Below, piece after piece: positions 35,442 through 52,425 of a stretch of 54,685 nt of DNA (positions are counted from its first letter, which is position 1; the number at the start of each line of letters is the position of its first letter). The translations under genes and the position numbers were made by a program. Source of the stretch: a virus (Duplodnaviria; Caudoviricetes). Below the pieces are notes generated by a model that made no database searches, had not been told where the DNA came from, and saw only the letters and a list, made by a program, of their open reading frames with translations. The stretch spans positions 1 to 54,685 of IMG/VR virus record IMGVR_UViG_3300048599_000773. One strand, written 5' to 3'.

Positions 35442-36974
35442 GTGGTCATTACGGGCGAGCTGAAAAATTCAATCGATAAGATTTGGGACGACATGTTCTC
35501 GTATGGCATTGCCAATCCGTTGGTAGTCATAGAGCAGCTTACATATTTGTTTTTCATCCGTTCGCTGGATATGATTGAGGAACGCAACGAAAACAAAGAT
35601 AATTTGATAGGAGGCGCCCCGGGCGAGCGCATTTTCTCGCCGGATGAATATGGGCAGGGTCTACGCTGGAGCAAATTCAAAGATCTGCCCGCTGAACAGC
35701 TTTTCGAGCGGATTCGGGACAGGGTTTTCCCCTTTATCAAAGGAACGGATACCGTCATTAATCTGGCCGACGGCACAAAACACACCATCAAGGGGATGAA
35801 GATCGGTCCCAAAAGCGCCTATGCCCAGCATATGGACAACGCCTATTTCGGTTTCCCAAACCCGTTGATAACCGAAAAGGTGGTCACGGCGATTGACGCG
35901 CTGACACAGGCTCTTAAGGATAACGATCTCAAGGGTGACCTGTATGAGTACATGATTTCTAAATTGCAGACTGCAGGCCGTATAGGGCAATTCAGGACAC
36001 CGCGCCACATCATCCGAATGATGGTGCGCCTCATCGACCCACATATCACGGACACTATCGCCGACCCAGCCTGCGGTACGGGCGGGTTCCTGGTGCTTGC
36101 CGGGGAGTATGTCCGCCAAAATAACGAGAAGGCTCTGCGGCTCGATAAAAATGCCCGTACACATTATCAAAGTAAAATGTTCACCGGCTATGACACCGAC
36201 CAGACCATGTTGCGCATCACCGCGATGAATATAATACTACATAACATGGACGAAGCAGATATCCGGTTTAACGACTCACTCTCCAAAGATAATGGCGATA
36301 GTGAAAAATACAGCGTGGTGCTGGCCAACCCGCCGTTCAAAGGTTCGCTTGACCACGAGGCGGTCGCGCCGTCGCTGACTTCGGTGACAAATACTAAAAA
36401 GACGGAGTTGCTCTTCCTCGCTCTTTTCCTGCGGATGCTTCAAGTTGGTGGGCGTTGTGCCTGCATCGTACCGGACGGCGTTCTTTTCGGCACATCCACG
36501 GCGCACAAGGCAATCCGCAAGGAAATCATTGAGAACCACAAATTGCAGGCGATCATCTCGATGCCTTCCGGTGTGTTCAAGCCCTATGCCGGCGTGTCCA
36601 CCGCTGTCCTGGTATTTACCAAGACCGGCAAGGGCGGCACGGATCAGGTGTGGTTCTATGATATGCAGTCGGACGGTTACAGCCTTGATGACAAGCGCAC
36701 CGATTTAGGCACCGGCGGCGATATCGAGGATATTGTGACAAGGTTTAAGAATCCGGATGCGGAAGCCGCGCGGGAACGCACCGAGCAGAGTTTCCTCGTA
36801 CCGAAGCAGGAAATTGTCGATAATGACTATGACCTTTCGATAAATAAGTACAAGAAAACGGTCGCGCAGGCCACCGAATATCCGGCCACCAGAGAGATTA
36901 TGGCGGAGCTATTTGAAATCGAGGAACGCATCGCGGCGGGGCTGAAGGAGCTGGAGGCGATGCTGAATGAGTAG
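35442..36974 (+). CDS. hsdM: Type I RM methyltransferase subunit
   Basis: GQFRTPRH, DPACGTGGF, LANPPF, VPDGVLF. Confidence 0.95.
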   Translation: MVITGELKNSIDKIWDDMFSYGIANPLVVIEQLTYLFFIRSLDMIEERNENKDNLIGGAPGERIFSPDEYGQGLRWSKFKDLPAEQLFERIRDRVFPFIKGTDTVINLADGTKHTIKGMKIGPKSAYAQHMDNAYFGFPNPLITEKVVTAIDALTQALKDNDLKGDLYEYMISKLQTAGRIGQFRTPRHIIRMMVRLIDPHITDTIADPACGTGGFLVLAGEYVRQNNEKALRLDKNARTHYQSKMFTGYDTDQTMLRITAMNIILHNMDEADIRFNDSLSKDNGDSEKYSVVLANPPFKGSLDHEAVAPSLTSVTNTKKTELLFLALFLRMLQVGGRCACIVPDGVLFGTSTAHKAIRKEIIENHKLQAIISMPSGVFKPYAGVSTAVLVFTKTGKGGTDQVWFYDMQSDGYSLDDKRTDLGTGGDIEDIVTRFKNPDAEAARERTEQSFLVPKQEIVDNDYDLSINKYKKTVAQATEYPATREIMAELFEIEERIAAGLKELEAMLNE

Positions 36975-38058
36975 TTGGAATACAGTTCGACTGGCTGATG
37001 TCTTACGCATTGACAAGACAACGGTTTCTCCAAGTGACGCCCAGAACAAACCTTATGTCGGCCTTGAGCATATTACCAAAAATACTGGTGAGATAGAAAA
37101 CGGATGCAAACAAAGCAATGCTGATGTTAAGAGTACAAAATTTGCTTTTGACCAGCGGCATATTCTTTATGGCAAGTTGCGACCGAATCTTAACAAAGTG
37201 GCACTTCCTGATTTTTCAGGAGTTTGTAGCACAGATATATATCCGCTGTTGGTTGACAATGACGTTGCGGATAGAAGACTCATTTGCGCCATTTTAAGAA
37301 GTAGCGACTTCGTTGCTTATGCTTCAAGTCAAGTTCGTGGAGCAAATCTGCCACGGGTGAATGAAAGTGTAATTAACAATTACGAAATTTCGCTTCCAAC
37401 GCTTAATGAGCAGCGTAGAATCGCCTCACTACTGGATAAGGTGAGCGATTTAATTACCTTACGCAAACAACAGCTTGAGCAACTTGACCTAATGGTCAAA
37501 TCTCAATTTATCGAGATGTTTGGAAAGCCATTAAGCGCACAAAGTAAATGGCCAATTGAATATTTAGGCAAATTATGCGATATGAAAGCAGGAAAATTTG
37601 TTTCTGCATCTGAAATTAAAGAAAAGGATGAAGAAAACCAATACCCCTGTTACGGAGGCAACGGTTTGAGAGGATATGTTTGTAGCTATTCACATGAAGG
37701 AAACTATCCTTTAATTGGAAGACAAGGCGCTTTATGCGGAAATGTACAGTATGTAGAAGGTAAATTCTACGCTACTGAACATGCAGTTGTAACTAAGCCT
37801 ATAATAGAAATGAATACATATTGGCTATTTTATACACTAAAAGAATTAGACTTAAATAGACTTTCTTCTGGAGCGGCACAACCTGGACTTACAGTAGGAA
37901 AATTAAATCTTGTGCAAATACCATATCCACCAATCAAGCTTCAAAACCAGTTTTCCAACTTTGCCAAACAGGTCGATAAATCAAAATTAGAAATCCAGCA
38001 GGGGTTGAAAAAGCTGGAACTCCAGTACAATGCGCTCATGCAGCGATATTTCGGATAG
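36967..38058 (+). CDS. hsdS: Type I RM specificity subunit
   Basis: Two TRDs with LPTLNEQRRI and PPIKLQNQF conserved repeats. Confidence 0.93.
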   Translation: MSSWNTVRLADVLRIDKTTVSPSDAQNKPYVGLEHITKNTGEIENGCKQSNADVKSTKFAFDQRHILYGKLRPNLNKVALPDFSGVCSTDIYPLLVDNDVADRRLICAILRSSDFVAYASSQVRGANLPRVNESVINNYEISLPTLNEQRRIASLLDKVSDLITLRKQQLEQLDLMVKSQFIEMFGKPLSAQSKWPIEYLGKLCDMKAGKFVSASEIKEKDEENQYPCYGGNGLRGYVCSYSHEGNYPLIGRQGALCGNVQYVEGKFYATEHAVVTKPIIEMNTYWLFYTLKELDLNRLSSGAAQPGLTVGKLNLVQIPYPPIKLQNQFSNFAKQVDKSKLEIQQGLKKLELQYNALMQRYFG

Positions 38059-38231
38059 GCGGTTCATTCTCCTGCTCAGAGCAATTTACCGCTTGGGCGG
38101 CATGAGATAGACGAGATTATGAGGAAAGGAGAACCCCTTGATGACGCGAAACATCGAAAAACCACATACTACCCACGCGCATCTGCTTTTTCGCCTTCTT
38201 TCTTCTTTAGGGAGTGAGGTGCGGTGAAGGT

Positions 38232-38900
38232 ATGTTTGACAAGTATGACGAGTATACCGAGGGAATGCTTCTCGCTCAATATAGGGTGTCGGAGATGATT
38301 AACCATAAACTGACGCGCGGCGAAGTCCGGGAAGACTTCTTGAAACTGCAGATTGAACTCCAATATGACGGCATCCGCTGTTGCAAGGGGGTTATAGCCG
38401 ACTGCGAAGGGCAGAATCAAAGCGAGCAGATTGATTTAATCATCGCCAAGCCCAATGCCCAGGTGCGTAGGATGGGCAGCCATTCTCTGATTTCAGTTGA
38501 CGATGCTGTTTTCATTATTGAAGTCAAAAGCAACGCGACAGGCGCGGATTTTACAGCCCTCAACTCGAAAGCTAATAGGTACAAGAGTATGAACGGTGGG
38601 CAGTCGTTGCTGGTAGGAATGTTCTGCTATAATTACGATTTGAAGATGAAGACGGTTCTGCGGCGTTTCGGTTACGCCTACGACGAAGAAGTACAAGGGT
38701 TCCAAAAACAATCCGGCATAGCATTGCAATATAACAGTATTGATTTTGCTGTTTCTCTGGATGAAAATGAAGAAGAGGACACGGGGCAGCAAAGAGGTTT
38801 TTTCGTCATGAAAGACGAAACTGGCGGGTATGCGCTGTACCTGGAGAGGAGCCCTGTTTCAAAATATTTTTTCAGGCTGCTTAGGCGTAGCATAAGATAA
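38232..38900 (+). CDS. NucC/DUF6602-like PD-(D/E)xK endonuclease
   Basis: H....GEVRE, G.I.D....QSEQIDLII, FIIEVKS. Confidence 0.7.
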   Translation: MFDKYDEYTEGMLLAQYRVSEMINHKLTRGEVREDFLKLQIELQYDGIRCCKGVIADCEGQNQSEQIDLIIAKPNAQVRRMGSHSLISVDDAVFIIEVKSNATGADFTALNSKANRYKSMNGGQSLLVGMFCYNYDLKMKTVLRRFGYAYDEEVQGFQKQSGIALQYNSIDFAVSLDENEEEDTGQQRGFFVMKDETGGYALYLERSPVSKYFFRLLRRSIR

Positions 38901-38905
38901 GGAGG

Positions 38906-41900
38906 ATGAGCCATATGGCCAATTTCGATTTCTTGAAAGGTAAACAAAACTTCAAGGCGTTTACTGAAGCTTGTTTGGATGCTGAAAAATCCATCGCGGC
39001 AAGCCCTGCTCTTTGCGCGCTTGGATGCAGAAAGAGCGCGGAGCTTGCGGTCAAATGGCTCTACTCCGTTGACAAGTCCATGACGCTCCCCTTTAATGAT
39101 AATCTGTCCGCGTTAATATATAATCCTTCGTTTATGGATACCGTGGACCAAAAAATTATAAGCAAGCTGAAATTCATCATCAAACTAGGGAATTTCGCCG
39201 CTCATACCAATAAGAATGTCAGCTATCGGGAAGCGGTTTTGTCGCTGGGAAATCTATTCGACTTCATCCAGTTCATTGACTATTGTTATGGCACGGACTA
39301 TCAAGAACGCGCTTTTAACGAGAAATTGCTCCCCGCTGAAAACGATTTGGCCATTTCCAAGGCGGAGTTCGATCGGCTGAAGGACAACTTGGATGGTAAA
39401 ACCGCCGAACGTGAACAGTTGCTTGACGAGGTTAAGCGGTTGCAGGCGGAGATGGAAGCCCTCAAAGCCAAAAATCAGGCCACGAGGGTATTCTCATCCA
39501 AACCAATCAGCGAAGCTGAAACACGGCGTAGCCTCATTGACGTGGATCTCAAAGCTATGGGATGGATTTTTGGTCAGAATTGTATTATGGAAGTCGCTGT
39601 TGTTGGTATGCCGATCTCCGACAGAAATCCGGACGGTAACGGCGCGGTAGACTATGTCTTGTATGGCGACAACGGCAAGCCACTTGCTGTCGTCGAAGCC
39701 AAGCGCACTACAAGGGACGCCAAAGAAGGCAAACAGCAGGCCAGGGAGTATACGGACTGCCTTGAGAGAATGACAGGGCAGCGCCCTCTAATTTTCTATA
39801 CCAACGGATACGAAACATGGTTCTGGGATGATCTGAACTACCCGGAACGCCCGGTGTATTCCGTATTCTCAAAAGAGGACTTACAACGCATCATCAACCG
39901 CCGGGAGAGTAAGCGGCCTTTTGATGACCGCCTGGAGATAAAAGATGAGATTACCGACAGGCCGTATCAGAAAATTGCTATCCAGCGTGTTTGTAAGGAT
40001 TTTTCGGACAGCCGGCGTAAGGCGCTTCTGGTCATGGCGACCGGCACCGGCAAGACCCGTACCGTCGCTTCGCTGGTTGATGTACTTGCGAATCATAATT
40101 GGGTGACTAATATCCTGTTCCTCGCAGACCGCAAGGAACTGGTTAAGCAAGCGAAACAGGCGTTTAACAGGCACTTGCCAAACCTTTCGACCTGCAATTT
40201 GCTAAAGCGGGAGCCCGGAGAGAAACCTACTGATCGGGCAATTTTCTCGACCTACCCGACGATCATGAACGCCATCGACGAAGCAAAGACCGAGGACGGC
40301 AGGAAGCTGTTTACGCCTGCCCACTTTGATTTGATCATCGTAGACGAGGCGCACAGAAGTATTTTTAAGAAGTACAGAGCTATCTTCGCTTATTTCGATG
40401 CGTTGGTCGTGGGGTTAACTGCAACCCCGAAGGCAGAGGTCGATAAAAACACTTACATGTTTTTCGACCTGGAAGACCATATGCCTACGTATGCTTATGA
40501 ATATGAAAGAGCCGTATCCGAAAGATATTTGTGCGATTACCATTGCATTGAAAAACTTTACAAAATCCCAACGGAAGGTATCACCAAGCGAGAACTGTCC
40601 GAAGAGGAACAGCTGGCCCTTGATGATATTTTCGAGCCGGAGGAAGAAGTCCCGGACTACATTTCCCCCGAAGAGGTGGACAGGATATTCTTTAATATCG
40701 ACACTTGCCGCAAAGTTATCACGGATATAATGACCAGGGGGTTAAAAGTAGAAGGCGGAGATAAGCTGGGCAAGACAATTATATTTGCCAAAAACCATAG
40801 ACACGCGGTTTTCGTGGAGGAGCAATTCAATAAACTCTATCCGCAATATCACGGTGAATTTGCCCGCGTGATCGACAACAGGGAGGAACGTGCGGAGACC
40901 CTCATTGACAATTTCAAGCAGAAGGATAAATACCCGCAGATTGCCATATCTGTGGATATGCTTGATACCGGCATTGATGTTCCTGAAATATTAAATCTCG
41001 TGTATTTTAAAAGGGTTCTTTCAAAGGTTAAGTTTTGGCAGATGTTCGGGCGCGGTACGAGGCTTTGCGACGATCTGTTCGGCCCCGGCGAAAACAAGCA
41101 GGAATTCTATGTTTTTGATTATCTCGGTAACTTTGAGTATTTCCGGCAAGACCCCAAAGGTAAAGAATCAAGCGAGCACGGCTCGCTTGCGGAATACGCT
41201 TTCAAATTAAAATCACAAATCATCTTCGGGCTGCAGGACGGTAAATTCGTCGCCTCGGGATTTTCGGAATTCCGCTCCGGGCTTATCGATGAACTGTCGT
41301 CGCAGGTTTCGTTGTTGAACCGTGAACAGTTCCAAGTCAAGCAAAACTTACAGTATGTTGAGAAATATTCGGATAAAAGCGCTTTTTTATGCCTGACCAC
41401 GGTTGAAACAGAAGCGTTAATCTCCCATCTGGCAAACCTGATACTTGCCGCGGATGACGAGGAATCCGCGCGTCGTTTTGATATATTGATGTATCGCTAT
41501 ATGCTGGCCGGTGTCAATAACGACGGCTCCACTCAGCGTTCTGTTTTAAACAAGGTAAAAGGCATCGCCGCTATTCTCGAAACTAAACGCACGCTCCCTG
41601 ATGTATTGCGTAACATGGAGTTACTTCGCAGGATACAACAGGATGATTTCTGGGCTGGCGCTACACTTAAGGAGATAGATGACGTTCGCCGGAGGGTGCG
41701 TGAGTTGATGTATTGTTTGAAAAACGAGATGAAGACGAAAATTATCAACGTTACGGATAGCGTCTTGCTGGAAAGGGAGGGCGAACGGTTCACCGCCGAC
41801 AATACGCTTGAAAGTTATTACCGCCGTGCAAACCGATATGTTGAGGAGAACGGGGACAAACAATCCATCCAGAAACTTAAAAACAACCAGCCGCTCTCTG

Positions 41901-42283
41901 AGGAGGACTGGGATGAACTGGAGCGAATTTTCTGGCACGAAGTTGGTACGCGAGAGGAATATAACAAAGAATCTAATGGTGTAACGCTGGGACGTTTCGT
42001 ACGTGGACTGACGGGATTATCCAAAGAAGCCGCAACCGCCGCATTTTCGGAGTTTTTAAACACCGCCCTATATTCGGAAGAGCAAATCCGTATGGTTCAA
42101 TACATCATCGAGGCGCTGGAAACTCAGGGGACCCTTCAGCCGGAAGAGATGAAGGACGATGAATTTTTTGGCGGACTTGATATCTTTGAAGTGTGGGGTC
42201 ACGACAACAGCCTTAAGGCGTGGAGTAGAGTCAAAGAGATTATTCACTTGGTGAATCGGAATGCCGAGCATTTGGCGGCATAA
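38906..42283 (+). CDS. hsdR: Type I RM restriction subunit (EcoAI/EcoEI-like)
   Basis: VDYVL...VEAK nuclease, MATGTGKT, DEAHR, GLTATP, MLDTGID, QMFGRGTR. Confidence 0.95.
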   Translation: MSHMANFDFLKGKQNFKAFTEACLDAEKSIAASPALCALGCRKSAELAVKWLYSVDKSMTLPFNDNLSALIYNPSFMDTVDQKIISKLKFIIKLGNFAAHTNKNVSYREAVLSLGNLFDFIQFIDYCYGTDYQERAFNEKLLPAENDLAISKAEFDRLKDNLDGKTAEREQLLDEVKRLQAEMEALKAKNQATRVFSSKPISEAETRRSLIDVDLKAMGWIFGQNCIMEVAVVGMPISDRNPDGNGAVDYVLYGDNGKPLAVVEAKRTTRDAKEGKQQAREYTDCLERMTGQRPLIFYTNGYETWFWDDLNYPERPVYSVFSKEDLQRIINRRESKRPFDDRLEIKDEITDRPYQKIAIQRVCKDFSDSRRKALLVMATGTGKTRTVASLVDVLANHNWVTNILFLADRKELVKQAKQAFNRHLPNLSTCNLLKREPGEKPTDRAIFSTYPTIMNAIDEAKTEDGRKLFTPAHFDLIIVDEAHRSIFKKYRAIFAYFDALVVGLTATPKAEVDKNTYMFFDLEDHMPTYAYEYERAVSERYLCDYHCIEKLYKIPTEGITKRELSEEEQLALDDIFEPEEEVPDYISPEEVDRIFFNIDTCRKVITDIMTRGLKVEGGDKLGKTIIFAKNHRHAVFVEEQFNKLYPQYHGEFARVIDNREERAETLIDNFKQKDKYPQIAISVDMLDTGIDVPEILNLVYFKRVLSKVKFWQMFGRGTRLCDDLFGPGENKQEFYVFDYLGNFEYFRQDPKGKESSEHGSLAEYAFKLKSQIIFGLQDGKFVASGFSEFRSGLIDELSSQVSLLNREQFQVKQNLQYVEKYSDKSAFLCLTTVETEALISHLANLILAADDEESARRFDILMYRYMLAGVNNDGSTQRSVLNKVKGIAAILETKRTLPDVLRNMELLRRIQQDDFWAGATLKEIDDVRRRVRELMYCLKNEMKTKIINVTDSVLLEREGERFTADNTLESYYRRANRYVEENGDKQSIQKLKNNQPLSEEDWDELERIFWHEVGTREEYNKESNGVTLGRFVRGLTGLSKEAATAAFSEFLNTALYSEEQIRMVQYIIEALETQGTLQPEEMKDDEFFGGLDIFEVWGHDNSLKAWSRVKEIIHLVNRNAEHLAA

Positions 42284-42295
42284 GGGGGTATCCAA

Positions 42296-43306
42296 ATGGC
42301 GAAAGATTTAACAACTTCCAAAATCGACAGGCAAAACATCTTAAATAACGAAATTGCGCTTGCTGAAATCCAGGAAAAGGGCGACTTCAAGGCTGTCATG
42401 TGGGAAGGTAAATTTATGTTTACTCGCGAAATGGTGGCCGAGTTTTTTGAAGTCGACATCCGCACCATAAGTCGATACATTGAGCAAAATAACGAGGAAC
42501 TGGCAGCGAACGGCTATGAAGTTCTTCGCGGGAAACGTTTAAGGGATTTTTTGACCACTATGAGTGGTAAGGACATTAATGTCCCTACCAAAATTAATTT
42601 GCTTGGCGTTTTTGATTTTAAGGCATTTCTTAATCTGGCGATGCTGCTCGCCGAAAGCGAAAAGGCGAAGATTTTGCGTAAAATGATGCTTGACATCGTA
42701 ATTGACCTGATTAATCAGAAAACCGGCGGTTCCACAAAATACATTAATCAACGGGACAAGGACTTTATTTCCGCTTCTTTACAAGAAGACAACTACCGGC
42801 GGCAATTTACAGACGCGTTGAAAATCTATGTAGAGGATGATCGTTATAAATATGCACATTTCACTGATATGATCTATGTTAGTATCTTCAAAGAAAAGGC
42901 TAAAAAATATAAGAAGATTTTGGATTTAAAGGCTTCCGATAAAGTACGCGACACTTTCTACAGTGAGATTTTAGATATAATCGCCGCTTACGAATGTGGG
43001 TTGGCCGACGCTTTAAAATCAGAATATGAAAAGCAAAAACGACCTCTTACAAAGATAGAAGTCGAAGAATTGTTCGCCAATTTCGAGCAGCTTGCTTTAT
43101 GGAAGCCCCTCATCAGCCGAGGCAGAATTAAAATGGCAAGCCGTGACCTTGCGCTTAGAGACGCGTTCCATTATCAACTGTCTGAATACATCCAACCATT
43201 AAGTCAGGAAGAGTATACAAAATTTCTCGGTGAGGCTGGAGATGAATTGGAACGGCTGATGGAAGAAAATCGCTCCGTGTTGAAACGTCTAAAGGAGCGT
43301 GAGTGA
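42296..43306 (+). CDS. Putative DNA-binding protein paired with Fic/Doc
   Basis: N-terminal HTH-like VAEFFEVDIRTISRY; overlaps the Fic gene. Confidence 0.65.
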   Translation: MAKDLTTSKIDRQNILNNEIALAEIQEKGDFKAVMWEGKFMFTREMVAEFFEVDIRTISRYIEQNNEELAANGYEVLRGKRLRDFLTTMSGKDINVPTKINLLGVFDFKAFLNLAMLLAESEKAKILRKMMLDIVIDLINQKTGGSTKYINQRDKDFISASLQEDNYRRQFTDALKIYVEDDRYKYAHFTDMIYVSIFKEKAKKYKKILDLKASDKVRDTFYSEILDIIAAYECGLADALKSEYEKQKRPLTKIEVEELFANFEQLALWKPLISRGRIKMASRDLALRDAFHYQLSEYIQPLSQEEYTKFLGEAGDELERLMEENRSVLKRLKERE

Positions 43307-43751
43307 AATGGAAATCGGGCTGATATATCCGACCATCGAACAGGCGATCAGCGTTCATCGAAAGACCGTACAATACAGTGGCGGCGGCGAACAGGGACAC
43401 TATGATTTAGGGCGTTTGGAGAGTGTTCTCGAAAATATAAAAAACGACGATTATTATCCAACATTCGTGGACAAACTTACCCATCTATTCTTTTGCACTT
43501 GTGAATTTCATTGTTTCATGGATGGTAACAAACGACTTGCCATCACTTTGTCCGCGCAATTTCTGTTACTAAACGGTTATATGGCCGTTGCAAAGCGCTT
43601 TTTCATTGAGATGGAGAATATCAGCTACCACGTTGCGGCTGGAAAAATTAAGAAGGAGCTACTTCATCAAATTATGACCGCCATATTTGACGGGACGTAT
43701 GAGTTCGACGAAGCATTAAAACTGGAAATTTATAATACCATTGTGGCCTGA
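43299..43751 (+). CDS. Fic/Doc-family toxin
   Basis: HCFMDGNKR Fic/Doc motif. Confidence 0.88.
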   Translation: MSEMEIGLIYPTIEQAISVHRKTVQYSGGGEQGHYDLGRLESVLENIKNDDYYPTFVDKLTHLFFCTCEFHCFMDGNKRLAITLSAQFLLLNGYMAVAKRFFIEMENISYHVAAGKIKKELLHQIMTAIFDGTYEFDEALKLEIYNTIVA

Positions 43752-43884
43752 GAATGAAAGGAAAGTTTTTGGGGGGGAGGAAGTTTGGAATCCGTTGCAC
43801 AGCCTGCGAATATAGTGTCAAACTGCGGGTAGGGATTGGCATAATGGTCAGTCCGAGCTATTGGAGGTTAATGGGACGAGTGTT

Positions 43885-43945
43885 TTAGTGGATTTATTTG
43901 TAAAGTGATTTCCTTTTCACGGGTGTGGATAAAGTGCGGCTGGGA
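43885..43945. repeat. att-like repeat copy 7 (degenerate)
   Basis: TTTATTTGTAAAGTGATTTCCTTTTCACGGGTGTGGATAAAGTGCGGCTGGGA. Confidence 0.8.
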
Positions 43946-44078
43946 AATGGGGTGAATTGGGCAAAGTAATGCAAATTGATTATTATTTTTACAATATCTT
44001 TTTATCACCTTCTATACAGAAGGTTTTTTGTTTTTTCCAACGAAATGGTTTTATATTATTGCTTTAAAGAGACTTGAC

Positions 44079-44906
44079 ATGAAAAAGATTGATTTTTACG
44101 GTTCCATACAGGGCGAAGCCGGAGTAATAATGGCCTTTTCCAAGATACATGATGTTTTGGGATTTTCCCGATTAGTAACCTCAACCAGTCGGGGATTTGA
44201 TATTGATTCTATAAATTATAACGGCCACGATGTTACGGTGGAATTTGAGTTTCTATCCAGTAACTTTATTGCTCATAAACATCCGGATAAAATGATCACC
44301 GGGCGAAAATATGTCGTGATATGCTGGGAAGATGACTGCGGACTCATGTCAACCCTAAAAGATAAATTCAGAAAGGAATTATTTGATCTCATCGAAATAA
44401 GAAGATATGTCAATATTAAAGAAGACTTTGAAACTAAAACTGAACCGGAGGAACCCATATACGCCATTCTATCATATAAACAAGAAATGGCCGGGGGAAA
44501 AGATTTTGGTGAATGGACCTTTTCGCATTGCTATCGTGTAAGAACGTCCGAAAACAACCCAAAATTTGCGGAAGATTACTTACCCTCTGGCTCCAAGATT
44601 CTTTTTTACCAAAACGGTTTTATCATCGGGGGAATTACGGTTGTCCGATATGAAATCATTGATGAACCGAATACTAAAAGAGAATGGGAGCTTTATAAAA
44701 AGCTAACTGATTATCCAGCAAGTTTATTTACGATCAGTATTGAAGCTTATAAACGGGAATTTTATCGAGGGCATATCTTTTATACGGATTTCTTTGATAT
44801 ACGAGATGTAAAAATCCGGTTAGATCAATATATTTCAAAGCAGATGCCTCACCAGGGGAAAATTAATTTGTCCAAGGATGAGTACTATAGAATCATTGGG
44901 AAATAA
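44079..44906 (+). CDS. Restriction-endonuclease-like protein with possible C-terminal PUA/EVE-like domain
   Basis: D...VEFEFLSSNFIAHKH...VICWEDD variant PD-(D/E)xK motif; C-terminal KILFYQ..IIG. Confidence 0.55.
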   Translation: MKKIDFYGSIQGEAGVIMAFSKIHDVLGFSRLVTSTSRGFDIDSINYNGHDVTVEFEFLSSNFIAHKHPDKMITGRKYVVICWEDDCGLMSTLKDKFRKELFDLIEIRRYVNIKEDFETKTEPEEPIYAILSYKQEMAGGKDFGEWTFSHCYRVRTSENNPKFAEDYLPSGSKILFYQNGFIIGGITVVRYEIIDEPNTKREWELYKKLTDYPASLFTISIEAYKREFYRGHIFYTDFFDIRDVKIRLDQYISKQMPHQGKINLSKDEYYRIIGK

Positions 44907-44909
44907 GGA

Positions 44910-46589
44910 GTGGTTATATTGAGTTATAAGCCGATTTCGTTAAGGAATCTATTATCCTTAAAAAATACTTCTTTATTTTTACCCCATATTCAACGGCCTT
45001 TTGTTTGGGAATATGAACAAATTATCCGGTTACTAGATAGCCTAATGAGAAACTACCCTATACAAACTTTATTGTTCTGGAAAACCAAAGACTATATAAA
45101 AACTCGTAAATTTATGGATAATATCGAAAGTGATCCAGATTTGAGTGATTACTATGATGAAAATGTTAGTCAAGAAGGTAAAGAAAAGACATTTGTTTTG
45201 GATGGTCAACAAAGATTACAATCACTTTTTGCAGTCTTTGATGGTTCTTATGATGACAAAGAATTCTATATTAATATTTTAACTGGAGAAAAAGAATTAG
45301 ATGATAATTTATATTATGAATTTCGATTATCGAAAAGAAACAATGAACTTGACCTTCCTTATTTTAAACTAAAAAAACTTATCCATGATAACCGTAATGC
45401 GGAAGATATTGCTGACGAAGTAAATACTAAACTGGATGAAATATTACTTGATGAAGGAAATAGACGGGAACGAGAGAAACTTGTTAGGCGAAATATAAGC
45501 CAAATAACATCGTTAATTCGGGAAGATAAACATTTTTGGTTCGATGAACTTGATGGTATTGCTAATAAATATACATATAATTTAATACTGAATATATTTA
45601 TCCGTGTAAACTCTGGTGGAACAAAATTGGATGCCGCCGATCTCATGTTTGCCGCAATGAAAGAAGCATGGTCCGAAGTAGAAGAAAATATTGAAAGTGT
45701 AATTGAACTCCTAAACAACTCAGGTAGACTTAATTTCGATAAAACTATGGTATTAAAAGGAATTATGCTGGTTTTAGATAAAGGGGCTATACTCACACCG
45801 GATTTTTTTCTTGGTAATCAAGGAGATTTAACATTAAATCTAATTGAACAAAGTTGGCCTAAAATAAGTGATGCCTTTACACAACTTAGAGACTTTATTC
45901 AAAGTGAATTAATGTTATACTCTGATAAGGTAGTTCGTTCATATAATGCGCTAATTCCAATTTTTGAATATTTTTATTATAACCCCAGTCCTGATCCAAT
46001 TAATAGGGCAAAGCTAAAGAGCTATTATTATAGAGCGCAATTATTTAATTGGTTTTCGGCAAGAACTGATCAGATATTAAATTCCATTCATGGGATTTTT
46101 AAAAGAAATTTGACTTCAGATTTTCCGCTTGATGAGATTAAAAAATACTTTAAAATTGAAGTTTACAAAGAAGATACTTTGAAAGCTGATCACCTTAGAG
46201 ATGCAAGATTAAGATATATTTTTTTGAATATGATTTATGTTGAATATACAGGGACTAGCCCATTTAATGTTGCTTTTAAAATGAATGAACCACATATAGA
46301 CCATATATATCCAAAAAGCAAGTTAAAAAAGATTCATCCTGCTAGTGAAATAAATAATATTGGAAATTATCGATTTGTGGGAGCCGCAGATAATATTCGG
46401 AAAAGAGCAGAGTTACCGGACTCATATTTTAAACGGTTAAAAGCAGAAGGTGTTGATATTAAGAGACATTTACTATTAGATGATTATACAGTTGATCCTG
46501 ACAAGTTAACTATAAATAATTATAATGACTTTCGTAACAGGAGATTGGATGAGATACTAAAAATTGGAGCAAAAATTGTAAACAAATGA
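44910..46589 (+). CDS. GmrSD-like DUF262 + HNH (DUF1524-like) protein
   Basis: LPHIQRPFVW, LDGQQR, FIRVNSGG..L, C-terminal IDHIYP...IGN. Confidence 0.85.
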   Translation: MVILSYKPISLRNLLSLKNTSLFLPHIQRPFVWEYEQIIRLLDSLMRNYPIQTLLFWKTKDYIKTRKFMDNIESDPDLSDYYDENVSQEGKEKTFVLDGQQRLQSLFAVFDGSYDDKEFYINILTGEKELDDNLYYEFRLSKRNNELDLPYFKLKKLIHDNRNAEDIADEVNTKLDEILLDEGNRREREKLVRRNISQITSLIREDKHFWFDELDGIANKYTYNLILNIFIRVNSGGTKLDAADLMFAAMKEAWSEVEENIESVIELLNNSGRLNFDKTMVLKGIMLVLDKGAILTPDFFLGNQGDLTLNLIEQSWPKISDAFTQLRDFIQSELMLYSDKVVRSYNALIPIFEYFYYNPSPDPINRAKLKSYYYRAQLFNWFSARTDQILNSIHGIFKRNLTSDFPLDEIKKYFKIEVYKEDTLKADHLRDARLRYIFLNMIYVEYTGTSPFNVAFKMNEPHIDHIYPKSKLKKIHPASEINNIGNYRFVGAADNIRKRAELPDSYFKRLKAEGVDIKRHLLLDDYTVDPDKLTINNYNDFRNRRLDEILKIGAKIVNK

Positions 46590-46668
46590 AATCGGTATTT
46601 CTAACATGATCAAAAAGAACTTTAGTGAGTCATCCATGAAATATGAGGGATAACTTAAGGAAAAGCCA

Positions 46669-47310
46669 ATGAAAACAATAGCCGACTATGCTTCAATAAA
46701 ATTAGGCCCAAATCTTCTAACCTTTAGATATAATACCAGATTCATCTCTGATAATGGTCCTGGTGATATTATTGGGCTAGTTTACATGATGAACCCAGGC
46801 GATGCAAAACCTAAATGTGTAGATTTATATAACAAACTTACTACTGAGGAAATTTGTTTGGAAAACGAAGACACTGAATGTGATACAACTATGAAAATAG
46901 TTCAAAATTTTATTGGTTTGGCATTTGACACTAATGGAAAAACCCTACCTCCAAAATACACTATATTAGTTGAAAACTTATTTAATCTTAGAAAAATTAA
47001 TAGTAAAATCGCACAAAGAACGGCTATCAATTATTTAAAGTTTGATAACAAAAATGATATAGAAAAGAAAATCGCAGAAATTATGTTCTATCATAGACAT
47101 TTAGATTCAAATTATAATTTTGTCTGGTTCGCTTGGGGAAAAGTTAGAAAATCAATACTCAAACCTGATATTACAATATATCCTAATAGGATTATTGTTA
47201 ATACGATCAAGTATAAAGGAAAACCCAAGCAAATAAATTATCCAAAGCATCCAATTGGCATGAATGTTGATTTTTTTGTAGATGCTTCAAAAGGAAAAAT
47301 TTTACTTTAA
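46669..47310 (+). CDS. DUF1643-like protein (tentative)
   Basis: MMNPG...NLF...FAWG...KHP motif series. Confidence 0.55.
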   Translation: MKTIADYASIKLGPNLLTFRYNTRFISDNGPGDIIGLVYMMNPGDAKPKCVDLYNKLTTEEICLENEDTECDTTMKIVQNFIGLAFDTNGKTLPPKYTILVENLFNLRKINSKIAQRTAINYLKFDNKNDIEKKIAEIMFYHRHLDSNYNFVWFAWGKVRKSILKPDITIYPNRIIVNTIKYKGKPKQINYPKHPIGMNVDFFVDASKGKILL

Positions 47311-47358
47311 CCTTGTATATCAAAGAAGAGACAATAAAAACGGAGAAGTGACTTAATA

Positions 47359-48102
47359 ATGTGTTGGAAAGACCATAATGATTTAAATTATGAAGACTTT
47401 AACCAAGAAGTTAATCAATTTATTTCGTTTGCTAAAAAATATTATTGCAAATTATTTATCAAGATTGATAGAGAATACTCTCCTATTGGTTCCGGCGGGT
47501 TTTTTAAATATAAAGGGAAAAACTATTTAATGACTAACTGGCATGTTATTAAGGGGTGGAATAAACAGGATATTTTTATATCTGTATCAACGGATGGAAA
47601 TGCCATTAATTGTCTGAACAATAAGCCTATTGGAGATCAAGATTTTGACATTGCGATTTTTGAAATTTTCCCAGAATATATTACTAAGTTTAACGGAAAA
47701 GAATTTTTAGATATAGAATTCTTTCAAAGAAATCCGATAGACTATTTAAAACTATACAATACTGCCATCGTATTTGGTAATCCAACATGTTTTGCAGAAT
47801 CAAACAATGAATATACTGAATATGATTTAACTATGTTTACATATTTTACCTTTACTATTGGAGTACAAGCTAATCTAATCAACCTATCCCTAGTGTATAT
47901 TGATCAATTTGGGAATGAATCCGAGCTTATCCCGGAAGTGCCAGGATTAAGTGGTTCTTTTGTATATTGTTTAGATAGAAGTAGTTCTCAAGCACCCTAC
48001 AAATGTATAGGAGTTTTATCAAGAGGAAGTCGAACAGCAAAAAATCTTTGGGTAATAAATATCGATGATATATTTAACTATCTTGAAAATAATGGCGTTT
48101 AA
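47359..48102 (+). CDS. Trypsin-like serine protease
   Basis: GSGGF, TNWHV (His), DIAI (Asp), GLSGS (Ser); no signal peptide. Confidence 0.75.
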   Translation: MCWKDHNDLNYEDFNQEVNQFISFAKKYYCKLFIKIDREYSPIGSGGFFKYKGKNYLMTNWHVIKGWNKQDIFISVSTDGNAINCLNNKPIGDQDFDIAIFEIFPEYITKFNGKEFLDIEFFQRNPIDYLKLYNTAIVFGNPTCFAESNNEYTEYDLTMFTYFTFTIGVQANLINLSLVYIDQFGNESELIPEVPGLSGSFVYCLDRSSSQAPYKCIGVLSRGSRTAKNLWVINIDDIFNYLENNGV

Positions 48103-48197
48103 GTAAAATTAATCCTATTCAACTTAAAAAACCCGCTAAACCTGACAACACTAAGAGTTATGTTTTATACTTTAAGAAAGATGCTCTTGATAAGATC

Positions 48198-48573
48198 CAT
48201 TAAAAAAATGCCCTCGTTCTTGACGATCGGGGGTTTTTAGTGGGTTTATTTGTAAATAATTTCCTTTTTACGGACAATTCGGGTCCTCAACCAGCTACAT
48301 CCCTTTCATCCTCCTCTAAAATTAAACGAATTGTCAAACTCCCCGGCTGTTCATCGACCTGAAACTTCCGGCCGGTTTGAAAACCATTTTTAACCAGCCA
48401 GTTACCTAAAGAGACGAATCGGGGGACTTGCTTTTCATTGGCATAGATCGAACTTACAGTGAGACGCCTGGTTTTCATTTATTTTTTCCTCCCTCGTCAT
48501 TTTTATAGAGTGACTTTCTTTTCACGGACGAGGATAAGGTTAGGTGCGGCTTGGGACTACCAGCTTATCCACG
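48198..48573. repeat. att-like repeat copy 8 (attP-like, with symE, joined to recombinase remnant)
   Basis: Core ...GGATAAG(48532-38)...ACCA(48562)-G-CTTATCC(48564-70) forms an inverted repeat; the right flank is recombinase-like coding sequence. Confidence 0.9.
48287..48478 (-). CDS. symE: SymE-family type I toxin (local compensating frameshifts)
   Basis: Near-identical to 29747..29938, but VPRFVSLGNW replaces VPAIRLSGNW. Confidence 0.7.
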   Translation of the reverse strand: MKTRRLTVSSIYANEKQVPRFVSLGNWLVKNGFQTGRKFQVDEQPGSLTIRLILEEDERDVAG

Positions 48574-48835
48574 CACCTGCAGAACTTGAGTTTTATCTCG
48601 ATCTCTTCATGTCCGATAATAATTTTTCAATGAACCTGTCGATGACTTCCTCACATTCGGCAGGTTTTGTTCTATCATAGAGGGCATTCCGGTTTAGTTC
48701 CAAATAGTTTATAATTTGTTCGCGGGAAAAAGGAATGGTGCGCCGGATTTGGTAATAATCAAGGTTGCTCTCAAGTTCCTGCCGTCTATTTTTAAGTGTT
48801 TGCAATCTCTGGATTGTTTCTGGATCGTCTAACCC
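48475..48835 (-). pseudogene. 3' remnant of a putative large serine recombinase
   Basis: Coiled coil LQTLKNRRQELE, then VIDRFIEK / IIIGHEEIEIKLK / GSPKPHLTLSSSVKRKSLYK across two frameshifts. Confidence 0.6.
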
Positions 48836-48928
48836 TTTTTGGCGCTTTGGTGGACGGTGATTAAATGACCAGGGAAGCCGCTTTGGAATACCATTTAAAA
48901 AACTATCCGGCCTTGCAAGCGATCCATC

Positions 48929-49132
48929 ATGTTGGCGACGAACTACGCCCAAGCCAAGGCGATGGCCGGTTTGACCGTGGAAGCCTTGGACGGGTTCTCC
49001 GGGGTGATGGGCGGACCGGGCGGTATCTTGGTTGAGGGTGCAATTTATCAGGATATGAGCGACTTTTACGAGCCGGATACCAAGCTATATAACGTGATGA
49101 TTGATTTTATTATTTTGCATCATGAAAGTTAA
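48929..49132 (+). pseudogene. Tail terminator (DUF3168-like) C-terminal fragment
   Basis: Y.QAKAMA....EALDGFSG...D.YEPDTKLY...IDF. Confidence 0.6.
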
Positions 49133-49209
49133 AACTTAAACAGGTTCACCAATGAAGCGCCTATCGGGGGGCTTTTTTCATTTCAAATTTTAGCCGGAGG
49201 AAATTTACG

Positions 49210-49320
49210 ATGTATCAAACCCAAGTTCAAAAAGTCAATGCTTTGCGATTTGGTTCCGGGATGGTGGAGATTTCCCAAGACGGCCAAGCCTGGACGAACC
49301 TTGGCGTGGGGAACAAAATG
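49210..49320 (+). pseudogene. Major tail protein-like 5' fragment
   Basis: GGAGG RBS, MYQTQVQKVNALRFGSGMVEISQDGQAWTNLG, then truncated; follows the terminator-like gene. Confidence 0.5.
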
Positions 49321-49401
49321 AACTGTAAAAACAATGCAGGCGAAAGTTGCCTGCATTGTTAAGAAATCTATTATAGCTATTCAAATGTATTAAAGGTGGA
49401 T

Positions 49402-50532
49402 TTAATTTTTCATTTTTAACTTGAATTTCTTCACCTGACTGATACGGGTCGGATCATATCCCGTCCTGACTTGAATATCCCCAGTTGATAAATTGTAAAC
49501 AACTGACCACATGGTAGTTGTCTGCGAGATATCTTTTAAAAGTTTCATGGCGTTATTGTCGCTGATAATACCATTGGTTTTTTTCAGAGTCTCAAATGCG
49601 GTTGAATACCGGTCAACGCCAATATGATCTATCGCTCCTGGCGATAAAAGGGACGAAATATCCTTGGTATTATAAAGCTGAAAATTGGTGGCGACTTGCC
49701 ATGGTTGTTCAGTTTGAATCACTTCCATCTTGCCGTCGACAAACTCGATCACGGCGGAATGGCCGGAGGCATCGGCGATTAAACAATGAGAAGGAAGAGG
49801 AAAAGAGATATTATATTTTTTGATCAGCATAATCGCTTCCGCTACATTTTTGGCATGATCCAGCACCAATCGGAATGCATCCCATCCACTTATCGTCATT
49901 TTATTAGGATCATGACTGCTTTCGGCATGGGGAACAGCCATCGTGCCAACAGCCAAACCACATTCATTCATACCATCCAATGGCATCCACGGCATTGTCA
50001 ATAGTTTGGTCCTGTCGAACACTGAAGCAGGGATGTAATTCGGGGGATTGTAGCCGCAATAGCATGGATCGAGTAATGATACTGACCGATAGCCATTTGG
50101 GGGATTAGTAAACAATAATACTGCGGAACGATGGGACCAATCAAAATTGCGTCCGAGTATTGGATTTCCTTTTTCGTTCCGGGCTGAAAATACGCTGCAA
50201 GCCCAATGAGGACTCTTCTGATTCTGAAAATTCCTCCATGCGGCTGTCTTAAGCAGATGAAAATTGGGGTACCTACCCGTTTTCAAAAATTCATCAAATC
50301 CATAATCCCCGTAATAGGTCATTGTGTATAGGGGTTCATCGCCGACTTTGGTAAAGGATAAGATCGTCCGAAGCGGGTTGCCATATAAAAATGAGATACT
50401 AACGATAATAATCAGCAATAATACGGCTACGACCAATAAAATCCCTTTTCGTCTTGATTTTTTTGTTTGAATTTTAATCGTTTTTTCGGGTAATGACTTT
50501 ACTTCTTCCATTTCTGTCGCCCCCTTTCTCAT
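49402..50532 (-). CDS. Membrane-anchored Ntn hydrolase (linear amide C-N hydrolase/choloylglycine hydrolase-like)
   Basis: N-terminal TM, ACSVF nucleophile Cys, GRNFDW, DGMNECGL, ATNF. Confidence 0.85.
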   Translation of the reverse strand: MRKGATEMEEVKSLPEKTIKIQTKKSRRKGILLVVAVLLLIIIVSISFLYGNPLRTILSFTKVGDEPLYTMTYYGDYGFDEFLKTGRYPNFHLLKTAAWRNFQNQKSPHWACSVFSARNEKGNPILGRNFDWSHRSAVLLFTNPPNGYRSVSLLDPCYCGYNPPNYIPASVFDRTKLLTMPWMPLDGMNECGLAVGTMAVPHAESSHDPNKMTISGWDAFRLVLDHAKNVAEAIMLIKKYNISFPLPSHCLIADASGHSAVIEFVDGKMEVIQTEQPWQVATNFQLYNTKDISSLLSPGAIDHIGVDRYSTAFETLKKTNGIISDNNAMKLLKDISQTTTMWSVVYNLSTGDIQVRTGYDPTRISQVKKFKLKMKN

Positions 50533-50769
50533 TTGAATTGATCATAACAGCTTTATATGACTTGGCATACTTACCATAGTACTAAAAAAGGATGTTACTT
50601 ATAGTACTTCTGTACTTAATTTTTCCATTACGGAGGGAAAAACGATGCCGGAAATATTAAATCTCAACGTATTAGATCCCGAGCCGAAAAAATATTGATT
50701 ACCATACCCGCCTGAGGCCGAAAACTTTTGGTTTTTCTCTTGAAGTGGTTTCGTAAGTTAACCGGTGGT

Positions 50770-51209
50770 CTGCTTGAGAAAATATTGGAACGCGACAATC
50801 TGAACACAGCGTTTAAGAAAGTCAAATCCAATAAAGGGACCCATGGGGTGGATGGGATGGAGGCGGATGAACTTCTGCCATACCTAAAGCAACACGGCGA
50901 AACCATCAAACAGGCTATACTGGAGAGGAATTACATCCCCGCCCCGTCAGGAGGGTAGAAATACCGAAACCGGATGGTAGGAGCAGGCAGCTTGGGATAC
51001 CCACGGTGTTGGACCGAATGATTCAACAAGCAATCGCGCAGATATTGATACCGATATTTGAGCCGGGATTTTCGGAGAGCAGTTATGGATTTAGACCGGG
51101 AAGAAGCGCAAAAGATGCAATAATTAAGGCTAAAACCTACATTGAGATGGGTTACAGGTGGGTGATGGACATCGACCTGACGCGCTATTTCGACACGGTC
51201 AACCATTGA
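50770..51209 (+). pseudogene. ltrA: Group II intron reverse transcriptase fragment (RT0-RT3)
   Basis: NKGTHGVDG, frameshift near 50945, RRVEIPKPDG..RQLGIPTVLDR, SYGFRPGRSA, DIDL..YFDTVNH; no YADD. Confidence 0.9.
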
Positions 51210-51399
51210 TGTTGATTTGGCTATTTTTTCAGATTATTTTGAAGGGAGATCCCGAATTGACGGGATAAAGTTTTTACTTTCCAGAGCAAGGAAATATATC
51301 AAAATGGATTTTCAGCCAATACCCTTCACTTATCGGGATTATATTGAACGTGACGGATTTGCCGCCGAAGTTTTAAAAGAAGGAGTAGAGATTGTCTGA
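51208..51399 (+). pseudogene. Minimal nucleotidyltransferase (MNT) 3' fragment
   Basis: DVDLAIFSDYF...F..EVLKEGVEI; N-terminal GS motif missing. Confidence 0.65.
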
Positions 51400-51559
51400 A
51401 AATTATCATATAAAATATAAGCCAAGATGGGCTTATATTTTAATGATTTCATTGTACATATAGTTTATTAAGTATTTAATACTGCGGGTATGCTGAGTTT
51501 ACCTGGCTCTCCAGGTTTTACGTATACTGTGGGTATATTGGATACACCAGATCGACCGA

Positions 51560-51994
51560 TCATTCTGGGTATTGAGAACATTCTTGATACTGTGAGTCTG
51601 CTTCATATTCCGGGTAATTGGCTATATTTCTTTTTCGGCGCATTCTCACATATAATCTGACATAACGATCCGTGGTCACTTTTTCATGGCGCCTTTTAAA
51701 AGGATTCCAAACTTGATAATAAGTACTCCAATAAGCATCCCCGGCCGATACTTGGAAATCTCCCTTCCCAAATATTTTTCCCTTGTTAGCTAAAGCCTGC
51801 TTAAGCAAGTCCGGTCCAACCTTCTGTGCTAGATCCATTAATTGTTGGCCAAGGTAACTTTGGGCACAACCAAGATAAGTACAGGCGGCCAGTTTGGCCA
51901 ATTCACCCCAGCCATATGATTTAGACCAAAGGACAATATCCCATCCGGTCTCTATATCCCTTTTCATTTGTTCAAATGTACTCGGCAAATGCAA
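51560..51994 (-). CDS. Hypothetical protein (start uncertain)
   Basis: 144-aa ORF; no recognised motif. Confidence 0.5.
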   Translation of the reverse strand: MHLPSTFEQMKRDIETGWDIVLWSKSYGWGELAKLAACTYLGCAQSYLGQQLMDLAQKVGPDLLKQALANKGKIFGKGDFQVSAGDAYWSTYYQVWNPFKRRHEKVTTDRYVRLYVRMRRKRNIANYPEYEADSQYQECSQYPE

Positions 51995-52176
51995 TCCCCC
52001 TCTGGTAAAACTAACCTTTTAGAATATATACTATTCTCCTTTCCAATTCTTTGTGATAAATTAACTTATCGGAGACGTTAAAGAAGGCTTATGATGATGC
52101 GTTGATAGTCGGGGAAGTTATGGGGACTGAAAAAGGCATTGATACAAGGAACAAACCAAACGAAACAAAAGAGATT

Positions 52177-52425
52177 CATTGAAAAAGACCCCCGATCTTA
52201 GGTGCGGCTTGGGACTGCCATTAAAAAAGATTAAACCAGCTAAAGGCTGGTTTTTTGTGTTGTTTGACAACATTCCACAACGATTACAGTTTTAGGGATA
52301 AAGTTTATCATGCGATTAGAAAATGAAAGGTTCTAAGGTTTAGTCAATCGTACCTCTGATGCAGAAGTACTCTTGATTTTTGGGAATAGTAATATAAGCA
52401 TATGATAAGTATATTATTTTACTAA
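52177..52425. repeat. att-like repeat copy 9 (internally deleted) plus flank homologous to 30060-30235
   Basis: GACCCCCGATC joined to TTAGGTGCGGCTTGGGACTGCCA (ends 52220), then the hairpin and a shared downstream tract. Confidence 0.85.

Follow-up and report, generated by a model that had tools for sequence, protein, structure and literature searches.

Phage large serine integrases of the phiC31, Bxb1, and A118 type join Resolvase, Recombinase, and zinc-ribbon domains to a coiled-coil C-terminal part, are encoded at the prophage end beside the repressor gene, and act on a short site with an imperfect dyad and a short shared core. To our knowledge, those described so far target protein-coding genes or intergenic DNA. 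In Islander-type tDNA islands, which are the work of tyrosine integrases, the element lies between an intact tRNA gene and a displaced 3' fragment of like orientation; the tRNA gene is restored upon integration, and tandem arrays can form at a single tRNA. Such islands often keep 17 to 50 nt of identity between the two ends. According to a 2026 survey, RNA loci are the preferred targets of tyrosine integrases (PMC13626063). Here we analyze a 54,685-bp stretch of DNA (the window) that constitutes the entire IMG/VR provirus record IMGVR_UViG_3300048599_000773, from a virus of the Caudoviricetes, and in particular a repeat that recurs through its right-hand part. The traits listed above for the serine integrases, apart from their targets, appear to recur at this locus or in its relatives, and so do those of the tDNA islands, apart from the tyrosine integrase and the length of identity. 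We consider it likely that phage-borne large serine recombinases (LSRs) of one clade use the repeat as their attachment (att) site and integrate at the 3' end of tRNA-Glu.

Junction repeats and their likeness to tRNA-Glu

The modules of the right-hand array are separated by copies of one junction, which is laid out as a terminator hairpin, a ~29-nt repeat (TTTATAAAGTGATTTCCTTTTCACGGACG, here called the P-arm repeat), a core (AGGATAAGGTTAGGTGCGGCTTGGGACTACCA), and a second hairpin with a T-run. Defining a core as a match to a 23-mer with at most 6 substitutions, we found eight, all on the plus strand, with ends at 28789, 30022, 31220, 33198, 33478, 33583, 48562, and 52220. Every intact copy switches sequence immediately past (A/G)CCA, most of them then entering the hairpin and T-run, and to the right of ACCA only copy 8 (core end at 48562) runs into GCTTATCCACGC.... 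On the minus strand the core reads GSPKPHLTLSSSVKRKSLYK, with TAA next in copy 1 (core end at 28789), and this frame is open for 28 codons in copies 2, 3, and 8. Both the minus-strand reading with its TAA and the switch past (A/G)CCA had been described in an earlier prediction made from the sequence alone (here, the original prediction), and we verified them on the sequence.

The core resembles the end of a tRNA gene. Compared without gaps to the last 47 nt of tRNA-Glu(UUC), copy 1 matches at 31 positions and copy 8 (48516 to 48562, plus strand) at 30, against 16 to 22 of 47 for six other tRNA types (Lys, Val, Asp, Phe, Gln, and Ala), and none of 100,000 shuffles reached 31. The last 13 nt, CTTGGGACTACCA (48550 to 48562 on the plus strand), are identical in the pseudo-tRNA and the true tRNA-Glu(UUC) 3' end; when the partner is tRNA-Glu(CUC), the shared stretch is 12 nt. 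Across the 34 nt outside the shared 13-mer, 18 positions match tRNA-Glu, a level attained by 42 of 100,000 shuffles. In the alignment, TTTCACGGCGGTGACAGGGGTTCGAATCCCCTTGGGACTACCA followed by CCATTATCCACG in the tRNA faces TTTCACGGACGAGGATAAGGTTAGGTGCGGCTTGGGACTACCA followed by GCTTATCCACG in copy 8, and the LSR homologues described below end in ...VVPTRFELVSPP and ...VVPRGFEPLSPP, which resemble a tRNA T arm translated antisense. These results show that the core is a diverged copy of the tRNA-Glu 3' end. The original prediction had taken the repeat for the 3' end of a recombinase gene split by its own att site; an att site crossed by an LSR frame is consistent with what we find, but the repeat itself should be seen primarily as a pseudo-tRNA-Glu fragment, not as recombinase sequence.

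To the right of the core, the stretch GGGACTACCA, a linker, and the second hairpin are also what lies directly after intact tRNA-Glu genes in genomes G009, G010, G021, G023, and G026, and the terminator is present in G022 as well, which shows that the junctions have kept, past ACCA, the terminator native to tRNA-Glu. The standard junction is therefore attR-like, consisting of a phage arm, the pseudo-tRNA, the shared end, and the host terminator. The expectation that attB would be the 3' end of a tRNA or tmRNA gene was thus borne out, with tRNA-Glu as the gene. ARAGORN found no tRNA gene in the window, because the record stops before the tRNA.

Several observations concern tRNA-Glu loci in other genomes. 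At L017 (G022:C24), tRNA-Glu is followed by ACTTATCCACAATA and then by the native terminator, with no LSR; this stretch is either the right half of a natural attB or the scar of an LSR 3' end. At L018 (G024:C108), the DNA past tRNA-Glu (CCTTATTTACC...) looks, by eye, like the degraded 3' end of a ...VVP-type LSR. Loci L043 (G018:C15) and L044 (G008:C58) have as many as three full tRNA-Glu(UUC) genes of identical sequence; each has a terminator of its own, and single unrelated genes lie between them. In G008 a full tRNA-Glu copy lies 43 kb beyond a broken LSR. Other readings of the repeat were discarded: a chance repeat was rejected, as were a group II intron end, an integron attC, and a diversity-generating retroelement repeat, these last three on by-eye consideration only.

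Large serine recombinases at tRNA 3' ends

The minus-strand flank of copy 8 holds the last ~100 codons of an LSR gene (48540 to 48850), read in two frames (48596 to 48850 and then 48543 to 48626) that are separated by a single frameshift near an A-run. An 85-residue frame is followed, past the frameshift, by one ending ...IEIKLKFCRCVDKLVVPSRT, with its stop at 48540 to 48542 inside the repeat. An exhaustive HMMER search with the translation of 48596 to 48850 gave four matches, one being the window's own open reading frame (ORF). The others were a 132-amino-acid fragment (61% identity), the 515-amino-acid protein P0003 (47% identity over residues 413 to 484; E value, 1.2e-14), and a repetitive 730-amino-acid protein that was judged spurious. 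Resolvase, Recombinase, and Zn_ribbon_recom domains are present in P0003 and in both LSRs of genome G001; all three homologues tested (P0003, L009, and L006) thus have PF00239, PF07508, and the zinc ribbon PF13408. The last ~100 residues of P0003 and of two further LSRs can be aligned with the remnant across both of its frames, the post-frameshift part reading KIIIGHEEIEIKLKFCRCVDKLVVPSRT against KIIIYKDRIDLKLKFSLDVDKVVVPTRFELVSPP in P0003. The similarity in sequence thus shows the remnant to be homologous to LSRs, in agreement with the claim that copy 8 alone runs into recombinase-like coding sequence.

The remnant is a gene fragment and not a functional LSR. It holds the 3' ~100 codons only, and neither a Resolvase catalytic domain (PF00239) nor a Recombinase domain (PF07508) was matched in the six frames of the window; the 119-amino-acid ORF had no Pfam match to PF07508 or PF13408, the latter not having been searched for in six frames. 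A word-indexed protein search for longer relatives of the remnant gave no match, and viral contigs scanned with P0003 gave nothing. Two weak tblastn matches among GenBank phages (E values of 0.07 and 0.09) were not used. A six-frame search of the window for Phage_integrase likewise found no tyrosine integrase. Neither finding that would have told against the original prediction, a tyrosine integrase with unrelated att sites or a remnant unlike serine recombinases, was thus made.

The remnant frame ends …VVPSRT, 6 codons into the repeat, and so differs from the minus-strand GSPK… frame to which the original prediction had drawn attention; that frame corresponds to the phage's own type of LSR, whose relatives read ..GSP.., but it is not the one that the remnant at copy 8 uses. 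The junction at copy 8, ACCA followed by GCTTATCC, is identical to the LSR junctions in L032 and L036, and the LSRs there share the remnant's ...DKLVVP... ending. The remnant is from a sister LSR lineage, which crosses the site in another frame. With a phage arm on its left and an LSR 3' end on its right, copy 8 has the P-O-P' architecture of an attP, as had been proposed, but it is a fossil internal junction of the array and not a working attP.

The window's own LSR lies outside the record, and relatives show where it would be expected. In all six related prophage loci, DNA that is 88.7 to 94.7% identical to positions 1 to ~2400 of the window lies just upstream of an LSR start: the LSR gene begins ~90 nt past the homologue of position 1, on the window's minus strand, and its 3' end enters tRNA-Glu or a tRNA-Glu fragment. 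The prediction of a minus-strand LSR to the left of the window, abutting an RNA gene, thus held at 6 of 6 loci. Over a longer distance, positions 1 to 15730 are 88% identical to G001 C3:140580-124702, where the prophage LSR (532 amino acids) starts 89 nt past the match to position 1 and ends in a 50-nt tRNA-Glu(CUC) fragment. The other end of this prophage is a homologous junction (C3:112222-112365), so that the prophage sits between tRNA-Glu fragment and junction, and the flank beyond is similar to what follows tRNA-Glu in G022. These alignments show that the left end of the window is syntenic with LSR prophages, and junction 1, at 28.7 kb, is most likely the attR of the window's prophage. 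In the left-flank LSRs, the frame that runs across the tRNA is ...N(N/G/S)GSP...; the LSR of the circular phage, joined to junction 1, would therefore end ...GSPKPHLTLSSSVKRKSLYK and a stop.

We surveyed LSRs in 41 relatives of G001 (Bacillota), with a locus threshold of E ≤ 1e-60. G001, the genome that holds locus L002, has two full LSRs. One adjoins tRNA-Lys and tRNA-Glu(UUC), and its frame traverses the tRNA antisense; the second LSR prophage lies on contig C5, which ends ~8 kb past the last homology. At all eight loci of the clade, the LSR gene ends antisense inside a tRNA gene or a tRNA 3' fragment: tRNA-Glu(UUC) in L035, L031, and L032; tRNA-Glu(CUC) in L036 (full gene) and L030 (fragment); and tRNA-Ala in L033 and L034 (full gene in both) and in L037 (fragment). 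The three at tRNA-Ala are sister LSRs (43 to 44% identity) with the same GCATTATCC motif past CCA. The three IMG/VR contigs whose LSRs are at least 90% identical all abut tRNA-Glu, and no tRNA was seen at a 45%-identical IMG/VR LSR (L041). An xx(x)TTATCC motif places TTATCC, corresponding to the codons V/T-D-K/N, 2 to 3 nt past CCA in 10 related LSR loci. An intact target tRNA stands at the element end in L035, L031, L038, L039, and L040.

A proposed att site and competing explanations

On the reading that we favor, attP in the circular phage would comprise the P arm, a decayed 34-nt copy of tRNA-Glu from anticodon to T arm, the 13-nt CTTGGGACTACCA, and the antisense 3' end of the LSR gene, whose codons V/T-D-K/N (GGATAA) would mirror the GGATAA of the pseudo-tRNA. 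Strand exchange within the shared 13-mer would restore the tRNA at attL, where the LSR frame would continue into the tRNA with a change of tail, and attR would be left with the P arm, the pseudo-tRNA, ACCA, and the host tRNA-Glu terminator. The window would then represent a prophage whose LSR was cut off by the left record boundary, followed by a 24-kb array of toxin-antitoxin and defense cassettes. At copy 8, a second LSR element, of the sister lineage, may once have entered a resident junction, leaving P-O on the left and an LSR tail on the right; the remainder of that element (48.6 to 52.2 kb) would since have decayed and would end at junction 9. From these arrangements we infer catalysis by the LSR, the position of the crossover, the use of copy 1 as attR, and the growth of the array. 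The original prediction had held that integration swaps the C terminus of the integrase. A swap of tails does occur, but the integrated tails vary from host to host (28 to 47 residues, with ~20 predicted for the circular form) and are not conserved, so we doubt that the swap has a function.

The dyad GGATAAG-N25-CTTATCC spans 48532 to 48570, with arms at 48532 to 48538 and 48564 to 48570, the right arm being the LSR codons V-D-K. As had been noted, it is complete at copy 8 only: its extended arms pair at 9 of 12 positions there versus 3 to 7 of 12 at the seven other copies. A second perfect 7-bp inverted repeat overlaps it (AGGTGCG at 48542 to 48548 and CGCACCT at 48572 to 48578). Perfect 7-bp inverted repeats with spacers of 22 to 28 nt number 39 in the 54.7-kb window, or 0.71 per kb, which makes a pair within 50 nt unusual. 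The dyad is centered on 48551, the left end of the shared 13-mer. We place the crossover within CTTGGGACTACCA and bound it no more finely, since any exchange inside the 13 nt shared by attP-like and attB-like sequences appears as a switch at ACCA; a crossover at or near ACCA, as first proposed, agrees with the shared 13-mer ending in ACCA, but the bound is the whole 13-mer. The CT or TT at the dyad center would be the likeliest point of exchange.

Several points weigh against this account. Even at copy 8, the extended dyad pairs at no more than 9 of 12 positions. The window's own LSR and tRNA-Glu are outside the record, so the left side of the argument rests on relatives. Junction copies also turned up in genomes, G009 and G027 among them, in which no close LSR was found. 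Pattern scans of viral and metagenome collections gave 0 matches to the attP form (P-O-P' with an intact LSR) and no attP/empty-attB pair for any one phage; scans for the P-O-P' junction or the core gave 0 in viral contigs and 0 in metagenome contigs. Finally, a series of LSR integrations would leave one junction with a host terminator, yet the window has five or more, so that the array calls for some other process. Possible contributors are the capture of cassettes in trans, junction-to-junction homologous recombination, and older islands of tyrosine integrases. Related genomes have the first cassette in common and then diverge.

The tyrosine-integrase contribution can be taken further, to an account in which the junctions are displaced tRNA fragments of tyrosine-integrase islands (tyrosine integrases being those that ordinarily exploit tRNA genes), the LSR remnant came to lie beside one through a secondary insertion, and the LSRs do not use the site at all. 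G001 offers a case in point, with a perfect 50-nt tRNA-Glu(CUC) fragment 41 kb from the intact gene that bounds an island with an adjoining Phage_integrase-family gene; it exemplifies the long identity that tyrosine-integrase islands often keep. Tyrosine integrases are therefore the source of some of the tRNA-Glu fragments at this locus, a point that also counts against our reading. As an explanation of the whole, however, we regard it as very unlikely. The window has no tyrosine integrase, and the part of it related to the LSR prophage in G001 shows no other integrase; the LSR genes of the clade end in a tRNA or its fragment at 8 of 8 loci, with a conserved TTATCC 2 to 3 nt past CCA; and the LSR prophage in G001 is itself bounded by the LSR/tRNA fragment and a P-arm junction. 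We give hardly any credence to a further alternative, that the repeat is mainly a regulatory RNA module of a SymE-like type I toxin, such as a 5' leader or antisense RNA between terminators, that travels along with SymE and to which the tRNA-Glu likeness and the LSR would be incidental. Three copies do lie immediately upstream of SymE-like genes, the core is flanked by two terminator-like hairpins, and the unit of SymE plus core recurs in L001 and L003. Against this, no Rfam family matched in the window, SymE genes are lacking at five of the cores, the resemblance is to tRNA-Glu in particular and includes its native terminator, and in relatives LSR frames traverse the same sequence. Such an RNA could hold alongside an att site but not in place of one.

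A third alternative, which would account for how the array was built, treats the ~170-nt junction as similar to an integron attC. A cassette would then run from terminator 2 through its cargo to terminator 1, the P arm, and the pseudo-tRNA, would be excised as a circle, and would be captured at any junction by the LSR in trans or by homologous recombination. At least five junctions with both a P arm and a host-type terminator agree with this. The window and G003 have the same ParE-type cassette behind a junction, and their arrays differ from there on; other cargoes stand behind the junction in L003 (VapC/AbrB-like, by eye) and L001 (YhgA-like); and ~190 nt are duplicated at 30037 to 30235 and 52233 to 52424. 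We nevertheless find it unlikely, because we saw neither a circle nor an empty site nor a cassette in transit, and homologous recombination or deletion at 60- to 170-nt repeats could yield the same patterns. We know of no LSR that recombines two like sites without a directionality factor. A bolder version, in which the junction is an active attC-like capture site, a phage serine integrase assembles and shuffles the cassettes as an integron-like system in Bacillota, and the att site also wires SymE to the state of the phage, seems to us distinctly improbable; under it, SymE would be translated behind the integrase in the circular phage and would be insulated by the bidirectional tRNA terminator once integrated.

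The array, the record boundaries, and described systems

The att-site interpretation leaves a long array to describe. Junction 1 (28690 to 28830, plus strand) consists of terminator 1, P arm, pseudo-tRNA-Glu, ACCA, and terminator 2, and its homologue ends the related G001 prophage. Junctions 2 and 3 (29632 to 31260, plus strand), each with a SymE gene between two P-arm repeats, flank ParE-type toxin-antitoxin cassettes, and junctions 4, 5, and 6 (33101 to 33620, plus strand) are three degenerate tandem copies. A partial junction (43878 to 43935, plus strand) has only the P-arm repeat and a GGATAA motif. The left part of junction 8 (48196 to 48276, plus strand) comprises a YhgA/Rpn-like stop-region relic, terminator hairpin 1, and the first ~29-nt P-arm copy (TTTGTAAATAATTTCCTTTTTACGGACA); the second copy (TTTATAGAGTGACTTTCTTTTCACGGACG; 48502 to 48530, plus strand) has at its right end the anticodon-loop-like start of the pseudo-tRNA, which supplies the phage-side (P) half of the proposed att site plus the shared core. 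In junction 9 (52198 to 52255, plus strand), the last before the DUF6323 and DUF6179 genes, the right part of the core (TTAGGTGCGGCTTGGGACTGCCA) precedes a native-type terminator. Between junctions 8 and 9 lies the decayed LSR-borne element (48563 to 52197), with the LSR remnant, short gene fragments, unknown ORFs, a choloylglycine-hydrolase-family gene (49402 to 50532, minus strand), and a YhgA/Rpn C-terminal relic (~52062 to 52180) that was recognized by eye and has a BLAST match to G001 C3:113234-113314. Such a relic is the typical right end for this phage group, and the intact YhgA-like gene in L001 matches Transposase_31. Beside the LSR remnant, two plus-strand frames of 67 and 50 amino acids (48865 to 49362) look like gene fragments and have no Pfam match.

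Three junctions carry a minus-strand SymE-like small toxin gene between two copies of the 29-nt repeat (63 amino acids at 48287 to 48478, with other copies at 29747 to 29938 and ~30945 to 31136). The match to the Pfam model SymE_toxin covers 52 of 54 model positions at 25.4 bits, against a cutoff of 29 (E value, 1.5e-5). By eye, the SymE 3' ends overlap a second tRNA-Glu-like, T-loop-like piece (CACGGACGGTTCGGGTCC...) at 48276 to 48300, 29737 to 29760, and 30934 to 30960, so that tRNA-derived fragments lie on both sides of each of these genes. In junctions 2, 3, and 8 (29930 to 29960, 31130 to 31160, and 48470 to 48500), the TGA of the 28-codon GSPK... frame overlaps the SymE ATG (ATGA), with GGAGG just upstream, and LSR and SymE could be translationally coupled in the circular phage. 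The ~190-nt duplication past the second terminator is 76 to 95% identical and includes a 39-nt palindrome-rich stretch; a Phd/YefM-ParE pair follows it at 30254, and those genes are missing at 52424.

The record begins at its cut left end with a CI-type repressor (1 to 372, minus strand), and in relatives the LSR gene lies ~90 nt further left. Replication, terminase, portal, and capsid genes follow, together with a 1,078-amino-acid phage protein (15999 to 19235) whose central region matches DNA methyltransferase PHROGs; beyond 24 kb, the content is defense and addiction genes. A complete Gabija GajA/GajB pair (24136 to 28233; E values of 1e-285 and 1e-243, respectively) lies just within the probable right end of the prophage, where the related G001 prophage has different DNA. 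In the array are two ParE-type toxin-antitoxin pairs, a beta-lactamase-fold gene, and, between two junctions, a type I restriction-modification segment (HsdM, HsdS, DUF6602, and HsdR, with a helix-turn-helix and ImmA/IrrE-like pair ahead; 33988 to 43751), in which a PDC-M59A-like gene and a Fic/DOC gene come after the restriction-modification genes. Within 44028 to 48102 is a GmrSD-like gene (PADLOC HEC-05), whose three neighbors (292, 213, and 247 amino acids) have no Pfam or PADLOC match. The provirus record appears to be misbounded: its left end seems to have been cut just past the repressor, which removed the integrase, and its right end appears to take in the ~24-kb cassette array and host-looking DUF6323 and DUF6179 genes (28830 to 54685, ~26 kb of island and host DNA). 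A tblastn comparison of the DUF6323 and DUF6179 proteins with the tRNA-Glu loci of relatives gave no match. In sequencing runs, the shares were small, at most 0.11 of the sampled words, and none of the runs listed was an RNA run.

For the insertion of large DNA, serine integrases are the enzymes of choice, and protein-coding genes are regarded as their natural targets. We found no description of a tRNA-targeting serine integrase in the literature, though large att-site catalogues and supplements may already hold cases. If our reading is correct, a clade that docks on the 3' ends of tRNA-Glu and tRNA-Ala, which are highly conserved, and restores them would provide landing sites already in place in many bacteria and would contradict the statement that tRNA genes are used by tyrosine integrases only. 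It would also mean that long arrays of defense and toxin-antitoxin cassettes can grow from an att site of tRNA origin, and the misbounded provirus carries a lesson for annotation.

Among described systems, the integron, with IntI, attI, and folded attC sites, differs in its recombinase, as the window has no match to the Phage_integrase family. The site-specific accretion of integrative and cis-mobilizable elements (CIMEs) at tRNA loci and the serine-recombinase arrays of the staphylococcal cassette chromosome (SCC) type appear to resemble this array in having cargo modules between att-like repeats, many without a recombinase, and toxin-antitoxin or defense cargo; here, however, the junctions consist of pseudo-tRNA and host terminator, and the array has no active recombinase. 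The integrase of Mx8, IntP, targets a tRNA gene, and in Mx8 and SSV-type integrases, as here, the frame crosses attP, so that integration changes (Mx8) or splits (SSV) the gene. These are tyrosine recombinases, however, and at our locus it is a short, poorly conserved tail that changes. The Islander paper names Mx8 and SSV as cases in which the integrase extends across attP (PMC4383910). Compared to the phage large serine integrases, the system described here would differ in its target, a tRNA 3' end restored by the tRNA-like piece of attP, and in the LSR frame that crosses the att site. Compared to the Islander-type islands, it would differ in using a serine instead of a tyrosine recombinase and in an element-side copy that has diverged strongly from the tRNA, with only 13 nt still identical.

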